A DNA stretch of 64,000 nucleotides from Candidatus Hydrogenedentota bacterium (lineage in GTDB: Bacteria > Hydrogenedentota > Hydrogenedentia > Hydrogenedentales > SLHB01): assembly GCA_045863295.1 (NCBI GenBank), contig BTWA01000024.1, positions 1 through 64,000 on the forward strand, read 5' to 3'. Both the position numbers and the translations under genes were made by a program. Positions 13,364 to 21,634 of the stretch are shown here, piece by piece (the stretch's first letter is position 1; each line of letters starts with the position of its first letter). Under the pieces are notes generated by a model, which was not told where the DNA came from, made no database searches, and was given only the letters and a program-made list of their open reading frames with translations.

Positions 13364-15043
13364 TCACTCCGCGGTAAATACAGAAAGTTCAACCGGGACA
13401 ACCGTTCCCAGCTTTGCTATCCAGGTTCCCCATGCCGCATCGTCGCCTGAAGAGCGTGCCACACTGCAGTACTCATTGGCGATCCAGAAGGTTGTGTCGT
13501 CATCGGGATCAACCACACAGGCCGAGTAGTCGCCCCAGCGTTCGGGGTTGGTCGAATTAAAGTCATCGTATTCGCCGACGCTGGTCTTATACACGACGGA
13601 TGTCTGCATTGTTCCGGCCGTTTCGCCGCTTGTGCGTGTGGCGACGCGAATATCGACAAACTGATCGCTGAACGATTGCGAGAAACAGACCGCGACATCG
13701 TCATTGGTATTGACGTTGATCGACGGCATAAATGTCCATTCGTCTGAATCACTTCCATTGATAGAACCGCTTTGCGCAACGGACGGCGCCGTGGGATTGC
13801 CGCCGTTGGTATTGATCTCAAACCACACCACTTCCGTCTTGGAGTCGGAATCTGTATCGGCGCTGAGTGTGCACCAGACACTGCCGCCGCGGTACACGGC
13901 ATTCATGACGCGCGACGACAGGGTGCTGATCGTGATGCCCGTGACGCCCGACTGAGGAGCGCCCGCGGCGATTTGAGTACCCGCCGTCCAACTCCGGGTG
14001 GTCGTGTGTGTCCCGGCAACCAAGGTGGGAGACGCGGCAGTACCGCCGATTTCCCAAAGCCGGTACAATGTCGAGCCGAACCGGTTGATCATGTAGAAAT
14101 TGCCGTTGTCCGTGGTTCCGTAGGTGTGGGCCGGTTGAACCGTAGATATGCCAGTCGTGGCGACGGCGTCCACATCGAAGTCAGTGAAGGTGTTTGTCGT
14201 TCCAATTGTGCTCTTGTCGTAAACGCGAATCTTTGTGCCTCGGCCCGTTCCACCCGAGTCGAACATATTTCCTGTGATTACAAGGCGAGTGGAGTCCGCA
14301 CCGATACCGGGGTAGTCGAACCAGGATTCATACCCGCTGGAGGGGCCAGGCCCAGCTCCGTCACCGGGGAATTCCACCAGCGTGTCCGCCACGTGGAAAT
14401 TCCAGTCCGCCCCAGTAAATCCACCGGGCGTGGCCGTTTTCGACTGGGCAATGTGCAGCCTGCTTTCGCCGCCCGAACCGCCGGAGTTCGGGAGGTTCCC
14501 GTCGAGCACCACCACAAAGAACCGGCTCGAGTGCTGGTCGAAAATAACCTTGGGATCGAACGCCCCCTTCGTCGTGGTCGTCGGTACAAACGCATCCAGA
14601 TCGATCGAACTCGCTACAGTGCTGCCTGTCTTGTCAAATATGGTGATGCCGTTATTTGTGACCTCGACGATGCGTCCGGCGGAACCGGCGCCCGTACCAA
14701 CCGCACAGTGCGTATCTGGCGGCTTTTCTTCAGAGCCATCCAGTACAGGAGTCTGGGCCTGGCCGTCGAAGCCAAGGGCGGCTGCGGGTGTAAGAGGCCC
14801 GGGAGCCGGATCGGGAAGCTCCGACGGTACTTGCGGCGCGGGCATGTCATCCATTGTCACCGTGACCGTTGCTGGCTCTGGGATGGGCCCGGTATAGCCC
14901 GAACCGCCAGATGGATATACGATATCCATGTCAACCACGACTTCTTCTGCGTCAACGGCGAGAAAGATACCCGCGCACAAAAAGAGACAAAGAATCAAGA
15001 CGGTACTTCGAGAAGATGCGGTGTGGTGTAGGAATATCTGCAT
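13364..15043 (-). CDS. Secreted beta-rich protein with C-terminal VPVELSVFTAE tail (putative sorting cargo 1)
   Basis: GAGGGG RBS; signal peptide; PPD...AVG, FDPKVIFD, DYPGIG, RWGDYS..VDP...FW..NEY motifs of an uncharacterised extracellular domain; terminal PVELS tail. Confidence 0.85.
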   Translation of the reverse strand: MQIFLHHTASSRSTVLILCLFLCAGIFLAVDAEEVVVDMDIVYPSGGSGYTGPIPEPATVTVTMDDMPAPQVPSELPDPAPGPLTPAAALGFDGQAQTPVLDGSEEKPPDTHCAVGTGAGSAGRIVEVTNNGITIFDKTGSTVASSIDLDAFVPTTTTKGAFDPKVIFDQHSSRFFVVVLDGNLPNSGGSGGESRLHIAQSKTATPGGFTGADWNFHVADTLVEFPGDGAGPGPSSGYESWFDYPGIGADSTRLVITGNMFDSGGTGRGTKIRVYDKSTIGTTNTFTDFDVDAVATTGISTVQPAHTYGTTDNGNFYMINRFGSTLYRLWEIGGTAASPTLVAGTHTTTRSWTAGTQIAAGAPQSGVTGITISTLSSRVMNAVYRGGSVWCTLSADTDSDSKTEVVWFEINTNGGNPTAPSVAQSGSINGSDSDEWTFMPSINVNTNDDVAVCFSQSFSDQFVDIRVATRTSGETAGTMQTSVVYKTSVGEYDDFNSTNPERWGDYSACVVDPDDDTTFWIANEYCSVARSSGDDAAWGTWIAKLGTVVPVELSVFTAE

Positions 15044-15114
15044 AGATAGATCCCCTCGGTTTGCGCCCAATGCCGGCGATTGACAGGTACAGCCCCGGAA
15101 TACCCCAAGCCACC

Positions 15115-15143
15115 AACCTACACCTGAGGCGACATTCTGTCAA
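15115..15143 (-). promoter_or_regulatory. Sigma70-type promoter for cargo 1
   Basis: TTGACA-17 bp-TAGGTT on the minus strand, about 70 bp upstream of the ATG at 15043. Confidence 0.55.
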
Positions 15144-15187
15144 CCCCAAACCTACAGGTGTGCTGTTTTGCAGCGTCCGCATCAATC

Positions 15188-20411: not shown

Positions 20412-20519
20412 TCTCGCGTGGCCTTCCCCTGGCGGGAACACTAGTCCGCGCCAAATGTACTTGGCAATCGCCCTGACCCCATGAAGAGTCCCGTTCCTTC
20501 ACCTTCATGTCGTGGGCAG

Positions 20520-20548
20520 ATGGTATCGCAGGTCCATTGGGTCGTCAA
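20520..20548 (-). promoter_or_regulatory. Sigma70-type promoter for the C25-lipoprotein pair
   Basis: TTGACG-17 bp-TACCAT on the minus strand. Confidence 0.45.
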
Positions 20549-20689
20549 GTGTGCACCTGAGTGGTTAATGCAGCTTGCCTCCAATATCCGAAAGGCCGCA
20601 CCCTACAGAATCCCTATGACTGCCGGAATGCCATATGCGTGCATCGTGGTCGCTCAGGTGAAGTGGCCTTGATAGACTTTTCCGTTTAT

Positions 20690-21634
20690 TCACTCCACGC
20701 TGAAGATACTGAGTTCAACAGGGACCGGAGGAGACTGAGACGCAATTCTCACAATATCACGGCCACTGCCAAGAGTTCCTCCGGCGTAAGTGTGCACCGA
20801 TGAACCAGCCGATGTAACTTCAACGGTGCTACCGTTAAAAGCTGTGGCAAGCAGATTCCCAGTCGATGGATCGAATGACAACCCCACCGCCCCAGACAAC
20901 CCAGGCGTTGAAATGGTACCGACGTGTACGGGAAGCGCACCGGCTATGTTAAACTTCCGGATGGCGGAGGTGCCGCCGGACTCATTACTGAGATACAAAA
21001 CGTTACTGGCCTCGTCAATCGCTAAGTCAGATGGGTTTATTCCCAGTGAGTTGATGTCGGTTGTTCCAAGGAACGTCCCATTCGACTGGAACTTGAAGAT
21101 CACATCTCCCACACCGACCGCCGCGCTATTTACAATATATACATTCCCCGAAGCGTCAGCATCGATGCCGCTTGGAAATACCAAGTTCGCATGCGTAAAC
21201 GATTGCGACAACACTGCTCCTGACGTATACCGAAGGCTGGTACGAGGATTGGATGAAAACCCAGTAGGACAAATATAAACGCTTCCCGCGGCGTCGACTT
21301 CAATTTTATTTACGGCGATGACTCCTCCTGTTCCCATTGAAGCGGCCGAAATGGTCGCGAATGTGCCGACATTGACGTTTGAAGTGTTGTGCGTAAGTAT
21401 TTTCAGCGCACCGTAATTGCCGACTAACGCATTTACACCGCTAGTCGTAATCGTTGTGACAAGACTTGATGGAGGCGCCGTTTCGTTGACAAAGGTGCCA
21501 GTCGAGGTGAATGCGTAAGTCTTGTAATTTCCACTCCCATTTTCTCCAGTTACAAATACTTCATCGGCGGCAAACACACGAATGCACAGAACAAGAGCGG
21601 TAAGGCACAAAGTTACCCGTAGCGACGTTTCCAT
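20690..21634 (-). CDS. Secreted NHL/beta-propeller-like protein with C-terminal VPVELSIFSVE tail (putative sorting cargo 2)
   Basis: GAGGGGG RBS; signal peptide; repeated blades (IEVDAAGSVYI, PSGIDADASGNVYIVN, PSDLAIDE...LYLSN, GLSFDP.TGNLL); terminal PVELS tail after an SQSPP linker. Confidence 0.85.
   Translation of the reverse strand: METSLRVTLCLTALVLCIRVFAADEVFVTGENGSGNYKTYAFTSTGTFVNETAPPSSLVTTITTSGVNALVGNYGALKILTHNTSNVNVGTFATISAASMGTGGVIAVNKIEVDAAGSVYICPTGFSSNPRTSLRYTSGAVLSQSFTHANLVFPSGIDADASGNVYIVNSAAVGVGDVIFKFQSNGTFLGTTDINSLGINPSDLAIDEASNVLYLSNESGGTSAIRKFNIAGALPVHVGTISTPGLSGAVGLSFDPSTGNLLATAFNGSTVEVTSAGSSVHTYAGGTLGSGRDIVRIASQSPPVPVELSIFSVE

Follow-up and report, generated by a model that had tools for sequence, protein, structure and literature searches.

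We analysed a 64,000-nt stretch of DNA from a Candidatus Hydrogenedentota bacterium (contig BTWA01000024.1, positions 1 to 64,000; hereafter the window), which carries on its minus strand, between positions 13364 and 21634, a cluster of five co-directional open reading frames (ORFs) that may encode a tag, receptor and peptidase system for exported proteins. Read in their own direction, these are a secreted 314-aa protein with an N-terminal hydrophobic signal segment and weak NHL/SBBP beta-propeller signals (cargo 2, 20690..21634), a 988-aa gingipain/PorU-like C25 cysteine peptidase (17475..20441), a 167-aa candidate receptor lipoprotein (16975..17478), a Gfo/Idh/MocA oxidoreductase (15188..16615), and a second secreted protein of 568 aa and unnamed fold (cargo 1, 13364..15070). 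This is the arrangement that an earlier, sequence-only reading of the window had laid out, with all five ORFs present and one oxidoreductase between the lipoprotein and cargo 1. Alternative ATG starts exist for C25 (20411) and cargo 1 (15043), and the stop codon of C25 shares an ATGA with the start codon of the lipoprotein, that is, the two genes are translationally coupled. Each cargo finishes in a ten-residue C-terminal tag, PVELSIFSVE in cargo 2 (20693..20722, stop at 20690-20692) and PVELSVFTAE in cargo 1 (13367..13396, stop at 13364-13366). The source (G000) is a 6.3-Mb metagenome-assembled genome of 88 contigs and 96% completeness. Near-identical DNA is held by sludge and bioreactor metagenomes of several studies; the C25/lipoprotein junction is identical in contigs of three other studies and the cargo-2 tail with its stop in one contig of another, and this reproduction of the sequence argues against the tails being assembly artefacts.

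The two cargos end in ...SPPVPVELSIFSVE-stop (cargo 2) and ...GTVVPVELSVFTAE-stop (cargo 1), the end sequences being also written ...VVPVELSVFTAE and ...PVPVELSIFSVE. That a VPVELS-type tail is shared by two otherwise unrelated secreted proteins, as had been noticed from the letters, stood up to analysis, the cargos having no common family. A six-frame scan of the 88 contigs for PVELS.F..E-stop, a search of the kind that the sequence-only reading had proposed, returned exactly two real ORFs, along with a third match in a spurious 80-aa frame. With a tail hidden Markov model (HMM) and looser regular expressions the two cargos reached 32 bits each, and the next best C-terminus in this genome 11 bits. 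The same reading had stated that a tail found only in these two proteins would speak against it; within the genome this is indeed what we see, but across relatives the objection fails, with nine further tailed proteins. Among 135 genomes of the phylum, the strict DNA pattern PVELSxFxxE-stop matched 6 sites, 2 in G000 and 4 in G014 (a genome of the same family as the source), and its reversed control none. A relaxed pattern admitting variant tails yielded 14 matches against 2 for the control; 10 of the 14 are real tails, all of them in genomes bearing the C25/lipoprotein pair, and the remaining 4 are TGG codons or antisense junk frames. A loose pattern without the final Glu gave a control-level match count, with the tail of G123 among its matches; five genomes were searched with the tail HMM. 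We discarded PVELTRFGIS (three g49 genomes), one G098 match, PVELTDF and PVEFTVF (genus g6), and matches in G113 and G093 as 30-119-aa junk or antisense frames or as internal motifs.

Eleven tagged proteins were thus collected, and their tails follow the ten-residue consensus P-V-[E/A]-[L/I]-[S/G]-x-F-x-x-[E/K]-COOH, with seven near-invariant residues and a stop at the same position in all eleven, three residues past the Phe. Besides its free carboxylate, each tag has one Glu or two. No hydrophobic helix follows the motif, and the helix plus basic cluster of tripartite sortase/exosortase signals is missing, in line with the earlier claim of a system with no transmembrane anchor.

The tagged proteins, two in G000, five in G014 and one each in G005, G122, G123 and G124, are of at least six unrelated kinds, with an S8 subtilase, a PMP-repeat protein, an NHL propeller, the cargo-2 family, a HExxH protein, cargo 1, and a 285-aa protein without Pfam family among them. 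A hydrophobic segment opens 10 of the 11 (Kyte-Doolittle, KD, values of 2.66 for cargo 2 and 3.04 for cargo 1), the eleventh ORF being without its N-terminus. The S8 subtilase of G014 ends in ...TLPVELSVFGIE. The tail HMM added the HExxH protein (~330-380 aa; G005, G122, and G124), which ends in PVPVEISGFTTE or PVPVEISGFEAE, and the fifth cargo of G014, an NHL-repeat protein (PF01436, E 1e-33) ending in ...TLPVALGAFAIE. Cargo 2 matches Pfam NHL/SBBP below threshold, and its relatives are tagged as well, that is, an ortholog of 63% identity in G123, which ends in ...VPVELSAFSTK, and a relative of 29% identity in G014:C101. The AF2 model of cargo 2, built on a three-sequence alignment, is too poor to judge whether the tail is free (mean predicted local distance difference test, pLDDT, 47; tail 23-26). 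Cargo 1 matched no Pfam or NCBIfam family. In the Atlas, its core fold recurs in other phyla (TM 0.77-0.81) with Por_Secre_tail, fn3 or DUF11 C-terminal modules, and a feature cluster near this fold (score 0.81) carries PEP-CTERM, as would be expected of a tag that takes the place held by a sorting signal in other phyla.

In the lipoprotein, the signal peptide, which includes Cys23, is followed by a linker predicted to be disordered (24-44); an FN3-like sandwich that starts at strand 2 (45-139) and a conserved C-terminal extension (140-160) make up the rest. A Cys at the end of the hydrophobic segment of the signal peptide is found in 24 of 27 family members, and 2 of the other 3 are N-terminally truncated. 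We take the context of Cys23 to be a lipobox, and the protein qualifies as a predicted bacterial lipoprotein by the position of this Cys after a hydrophobic segment. Pfam and NCBIfam hold no family for it, and Pfam searches of four family members at E≤10 returned noise. A word-index search of 5.8 billion clusters found 7 close relatives. The family profile, run against 1.84 billion representatives, matched 16437 proteins at E≤0.001 and 22 at E<1e-30; the strong matches are ~20 lipoprotein-sized relatives, and the weaker matches come from secreted proteins with several domains, which often contain this one in repeats or ahead of a type IX secretion system (T9SS) C-terminal domain (CTD). Some generic copies overlap Pfam fn3 or Pur_ac_phosph_N matches. 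In four metagenomic proteins (P0037, P0045, P0083, and P0141) a full PVELSSF-type domain comes last and is followed by a short conserved end (...GPVSA.PRLIYWIGK, ...LPAIRFLLRN), which may be another C-terminal signal.

Comparison of the lipoprotein family with the generic domain copies revealed that the former is encoded without the opening strand of the latter. Full-length copies read PVELSSFTA...V.L.W.TE.E.N.GF.V.R...YYY.L..VD..G, so that the beta-sandwich consensus on which the sequence-only reading had relied is real. In generic copies the opening strand (PVELSSFTA, PVELSLFTAE) lies ~21 residues before the conserved Trp of V.L.W.TE. A strand-like pattern upstream of this Trp occurs in 100 of 138 generic copies versus 2 of 10 copies with the C-terminal extension of the family, and its [ED]L[STA].[FY] form in 26 of 138 versus none of 10. 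All 27 aligned family members open their conserved region at R.RL.W.TE after a variable linker, and none has such a strand before it. With hhalign, the family aligns to the full domain at 99.8% (E 8.9e-29), real similarity being limited to the region from the V.L.W strand onward, and six tails align to template columns 1-16 of the same domain at 92.7% (E 4.3e-7). Both halves of the split domain that had been proposed earlier, the lipoprotein starting at strand 2 and the cargo retaining the first strand, are supported by these alignments. By the criterion used for donor-strand-type receptors, the lipoprotein would accordingly be classed from its sequence as lacking one sandwich strand.

Structure prediction points in the same direction. 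The AF2 model of the lipoprotein reaches a pLDDT of ~98 for residues 45-160 and ~50 for the linker (24-44). A VIA comparison with 48161 PDB chains returned almost exclusively FN3 domains among the best 50, aligned over 73-92 residues to model residues 44-140 with Z scores of 6.3-7.6, values below 8 being weak on their own; the root-mean-square deviation was mostly 1.9-3.3, with one nuclear magnetic resonance ensemble entry at 11.4. A Foldseek search of this model against PDB gave no match at E≤0.001. The model thus predicts an FN3-like fold for the receptor. Single-domain FN3 entries align to it only from their residue 11-22 onward (3mpc_B 17-93/96, 7jgu_A 16-90/90, 1oww 11-93/93), which indicates that their first strand is without a counterpart in the lipoprotein model. 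Two further features set the family apart. On strand B (residues 48-56), 25 of 26 members have Arg or Lys at the outward-facing position W-5 and 23 of 26 at W-3, against 19% of 140 generic copies. The extension (residues 140-160), which is absent from generic copies, is modelled as a short strand, a helix and a short strand with pLDDT ≥95, and follows the consensus KPLT..E..EI...G..YR.E.

The C25 protein, the putative partner enzyme, matches PF01364 with 246.9 bits (cut-off 23; E 5e-73) over residues 607-966 and model positions 1-372 of 374, a catalytic domain of ~607-966 that places it within the family. His829 (GHG) and Cys871 (SATC) align with the GHG and VAC motifs of gingipain R (4ief_B, 1cvr_A), whose His and Cys we take to be the catalytic residues of RgpB; the dyad is intact, and the C25 identity first assigned from the letters holds. 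The N-terminal hydrophobic segment of the enzyme ends in LVAC. Its match to the PorU model NF033707 covers positions 189-730 of 1095 with 179.2 bits (E 9e-53), short of the equivalog cut-off of 420, and the C-terminal part of PorU is absent. Judged by these profile matches, the window C25 is a relative of PorU and the gingipains, not a PorU equivalog. Elsewhere in the source genome, a 550-aa frame at G000:C5:28520-28831 gives a weak partial C25-family match (E 3e-7). G014 holds two large C25 paralogs of 1068 and 2649 aa (C51, C93), and G124 three copies of the window-type enzyme (C391, C155, C11).

Tag, receptor and peptidase co-occur. The lipoprotein (E<1e-60) is present in 6 of the 135 phylum genomes, namely G000, G014, G005, G122, G123, and G124, the last four of genus g6, and the window-type C25 (E≤1e-20, 37-40% identity, full length) in exactly the same six. 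Real tails occur in all six pair-bearing genomes and, with the DNA patterns used, in none of the other 129, an outcome of the co-occurrence profiling suggested at the outset that agrees with a three-part system within the phylum. C25 and lipoprotein genes are adjacent in four loci, that is, in the window, in G014, where the order is C25, S8 subtilase, lipoprotein, and in two short metagenome contigs (L033, L035), where the 3' end of C25 is followed directly by the lipoprotein. Furthermore, in an 888-aa metagenomic protein, P0012, C25 (PF01364, 382-739) is fused to the receptor domain and its extension (761-887) through an Ala/Pro/Glu-rich linker with neither a signal peptide nor a Cys; the lack of both in the linker argues that P0012 is not a simple frameshift of adjacent genes. 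No further C25-receptor fusions emerged from a longer-protein search with the family or from a search with the P0012 receptor region.

Two loci deserve separate description. At G014:C65 (L004 10375-10386), only two codons separate the stop codon of the tagged S8 subtilase from the TTG at which the lipoprotein starts, and both lie in one frame. The pair looks as though a stop and a new signal peptide had been inserted into a full-length cargo-plus-domain gene, within the hairpin of strands A and B, and this split arrangement may show how the system arose. In G005:C4 (L016 8725-15486), a window-type C25 sits between abutting frames for a Ser/Thr kinase (PF00069, E 3e-50) and a 509-aa familyless protein, with no lipoprotein at that locus.

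Searches for the T9SS, the setting in which PorU operates, returned nothing in the source genome. Neither SprA (TIGR04189) nor PorV (NF033710) matched in G000, and SprA was also not found in G014, G005, and G123. No type A CTD (TIGR04183 / PF18962) was detected on either cargo or in G000, G014, and G005, and two matches were recorded in G123. In the Bacteroidota control genome G044, by contrast, SprA scored 772 bits and CTDs were matched at least 150 times in the same searches. The expectation of a system devoid of a T9SS CTD is borne out, and the proposed check for sprA came back negative with a working positive control; from the lack of detectable T9SS parts in G000, the C25 enzyme would work outside the type IX secretion system. 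In a Hydrogenedentota genome of another family, G061 (82% complete), in which SprA was not found, a 646-aa protein at G061:C241 (L045 1159-3099) consists of a full PVELSSFTA domain followed by a type A T9SS CTD, and some members of the phylum may, on the sequence of this protein, use CTD-type sorting.

Collectively, these data lead us to favour, with moderate confidence, a tag/receptor/peptidase system for exported proteins that operates by strand complementation. Under this model, Sec-exported proteins of unrelated folds would carry, as a ten-residue tag, the detached strand A of a common FN3-like domain, and the lipoprotein, or the C25-fused domain in P0012, would be the same domain without strand A and would capture the tag alongside strand B, where the family-specific Arg/Lys of the outer face would lie opposite the acidic tag and its free carboxylate. 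The translationally coupled C25 would then act on the captured protein, either removing the tag for maturation or release or, like PorU, transferring the new C-terminus, presumably at the outer membrane or the cell surface. The domain of P0012 is without a lipid anchor, which suggests to us that its primary role would be the presentation of substrates to the peptidase and not mere tethering. A more specific version is a natural tag-and-catcher route without T9SS, in which the receptor would hand cargo to a PorU-like C25 transpeptidase, the tag would be removed and the protein would become covalently anchored to a surface acceptor; we put this version forward only tentatively. Such a pathway may be widespread, judging from the ~20 receptor-family clusters beyond the six genomes of the phylum.

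Several observations weigh against strand complementation. The most serious is that the open strand-A groove of the lipoprotein is an assumption, and that the conserved extension (140-160) could cover the strand-A site in place of the tag. The 92.7% alignment of the tails was obtained against 27 full-domain copies picked by a strand-A-like regular expression, which favours a tail match. The fusion is a single sequence on one 8.9-kb contig, and at the genus-g6 loci that we looked at (G005, G123, L026) the genes for C25, lipoprotein and cargo lie apart. All six positive genomes come from a single family, in which they represent three genera, so that the co-occurrence counts as three independent events at most. 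DNA patterns, which miss other tag variants, were the only screen applied to the 129 negative genomes, and the genome under study has two tagged proteins only. Finally, no route for the cargo across the outer membrane was found in the absence of T9SS.

Of the other explanations considered, the strongest holds that the tag is no more than a signal for recognition and cleavage, read directly by C25, that the lipoprotein is complemented by its own extension and anchors or regulates C25, and that the likeness of the tag to strand A is a relic of gene fission. The extension is conserved and confidently modelled, the subtilase and lipoprotein of G014 have a fission-like layout in a single frame, and P0012 reveals that the domain works with C25, not what it binds. 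A relic, however, is not expected to spread to unrelated proteins, and here the hydrophobic pattern of strand A is kept on 11 proteins of at least six kinds that always end three residues past the Phe, facing a receptor with family-specific Arg/Lys on strand B opposite the acidic tag; we therefore regard direct reading as rather unlikely. A receptor for a free C-terminus coupled or fused to a protease would also suit periplasmic tail-specific proteolysis, with the tag as a degron or activation signal, the FN3-like domain as adaptor, and C25 degrading or activating the captured protein, without any sorting or anchoring, much as in tail-specific proteases that bear PDZ domains and rely on a lipoprotein adaptor. 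This would dispense with the outer-membrane export route that the T9SS searches failed to reveal, and two of the cargo families consist of proteases or protease-like proteins, a class that commonly requires activation. Nevertheless, the fold of cargo 1 carries Por_Secre_tail elsewhere and, in the nearby feature cluster, PEP-CTERM, and the closest relatives of the C25 are surface enzymes, which makes proteolysis an improbable account.

The split-domain evidence from hhalign and the FN3 superpositions would also suit docking alone, that is, by a tag that tethers cargo non-covalently to the lipid-anchored receptor while C25, a sheddase or nutrient protease of the same regulon, leaves the tag untouched. 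Such independence sits poorly with the presence of C25 and lipoprotein in exactly the same 6 of 135 genomes, and both the ATGA overlap and the anchor-free fusion P0012 argue that the receptor serves the peptidase, so that we give docking alone little credence. Least credible of all is that the tails have no function and are remnants of truncated C-terminal domains in a coincidental neighbourhood. The restriction to two tagged proteins in this genome speaks for it, yet eleven tails share one end position and seven near-invariant residues, the strict pattern has zero reversed-control matches in 135 genomes, and the tag is kept in cargo-2 orthologs at 63% and 29% identity and co-occurs with the C25/lipoprotein pair. 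Tag capture by strand complementation thus remains our preferred explanation.

The oxidoreductase, which shows a twin-arginine-like signal and a Pfam/NCBIfam match, was considered and rejected as a component, as the G014 locus has no close homologue (G123 has one beside the cargo-2 ortholog); it lies inside the cluster but probably does not belong to the system. In G123:C10 (L090 13329-15946), the cargo-2 ortholog is divergent beside a Gfo/Idh/MocA oxidoreductase 42% identical to that of the window, a neighbourhood that could reflect either a functional link to cargo 2 or leftover synteny. Promoter and terminator scans gave matches at shuffle level only. The intergenic region between lipoprotein and oxidoreductase contains, at 16757-16833, a 24-nt unit repeated 3.2 times in tandem, with an internal hairpin in each unit and a larger inverted repeat bordering the array. 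The exact unit has 41 copies spread over many contigs of the genome, mostly in short arrays, and metagenome contigs cover the array 10-30 times as deeply as its flanks, the copy-number joints there being 48 and 72 nt long. This unit looks like a dispersed family of intergenic repeats resembling repetitive extragenic palindromic (REP) elements.

If the favoured model is correct, it would represent a new sorting principle, in which the address label is a piece of a domain that is read by the rest of that domain and coupled to a PorU-like peptidase, with no T9SS. One branch of a very large domain family that has no name (16437 representative matches) would thereby gain a function, as would C25 peptidases outside Bacteroidota, and exported enzymes of uncultured wastewater bacteria would become recognisable by a ten-residue motif. 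For coupling proteins in the laboratory, such a naturally occurring pair of short peptide and receptor could be useful too. We found nothing on the tag, the lipoprotein family or the arrangement in the literature, Pfam or NCBIfam.

Among known systems, LPXTG/sortase, PEP-CTERM/exosortase, and GlyGly-CTERM/rhombosortase rely on tripartite C-terminal sorting signals. They resemble the present case in that a short conserved C-terminal signal is carried by many unrelated exported proteins and occurs only in genomes with the dedicated enzyme, often encoded beside a substrate; they differ in that the tag described here is without transmembrane helix and basic cluster, the enzyme is of another family and a receptor protein comes in addition. 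Tail-specific proteases with C-terminus-binding PDZ domains and lipoprotein adaptors are exemplified by Prc with NlpI, and by DegS. As in those cases, a domain would bind a free C-terminal tail by sheet addition and thereby attract or activate a protease, with a lipoprotein as partner, but here the domain is FN3-like and not PDZ, the C25 is a cysteine and not a serine peptidase, and the tag is homologous to, and detached from, the domain family to which the receptor itself belongs. Chaperone-usher pili, with their donor-strand complementation, and engineered split-domain tag/catcher pairs such as SpyTag/SpyCatcher are instances in which an Ig-like-type fold is completed in trans by a short peptide. 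The lipoprotein would likewise be an Ig-like or FN3-like fold short of one strand and completed by a short peptide, whereas those systems are pilus assembly machines or laboratory constructs; our literature search did not find a natural tag/receptor pair serving diverse cargo together with a peptidase.

Closer parallels involve C25 enzymes themselves. In the T9SS, according to the account of the sorting step in PMC4560394, the cargo CTD is removed by the C25 sortase PorU. The window C25 is related to PorU, the C-terminal signal likewise derives from a beta-sandwich fold and is found on Sec-exported proteins of many kinds, and in other phyla the full PVELSSF-type domain often stands just before the T9SS CTD. 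In contrast, the window C25 scores 179 bits against the PorU cut-off of 420 and misses the C-terminal part of PorU, no CTD, SprA or PorV was found, and the signal is one ten-residue strand rather than a whole domain, the rest of which lies on a separate lipoprotein that the T9SS does not have. Type V pili of Porphyromonas gingivalis (FimA/Mfa1), as described in PMC5954841, are built from lipoprotein precursors through gingipain cleavage and exchange of a terminal strand. They share with the window a lipoprotein, a C25-family protease and, in the model that we favour, a terminal beta-strand that completes the fold of another protein. In pili the vacant groove arises when the protease removes a strand, and the subunits that polymerise are identical, whereas the receptor described here is encoded strandless; moreover, the donor strands sit on unrelated enzymes, with no sign of polymerisation or FimA-like folds. 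Dedicated C-terminal-tag sorting and strand complementation are both kinds already known; should covalent, sortase-like anchoring through the split domain prove true, the pathway would be categorically new.

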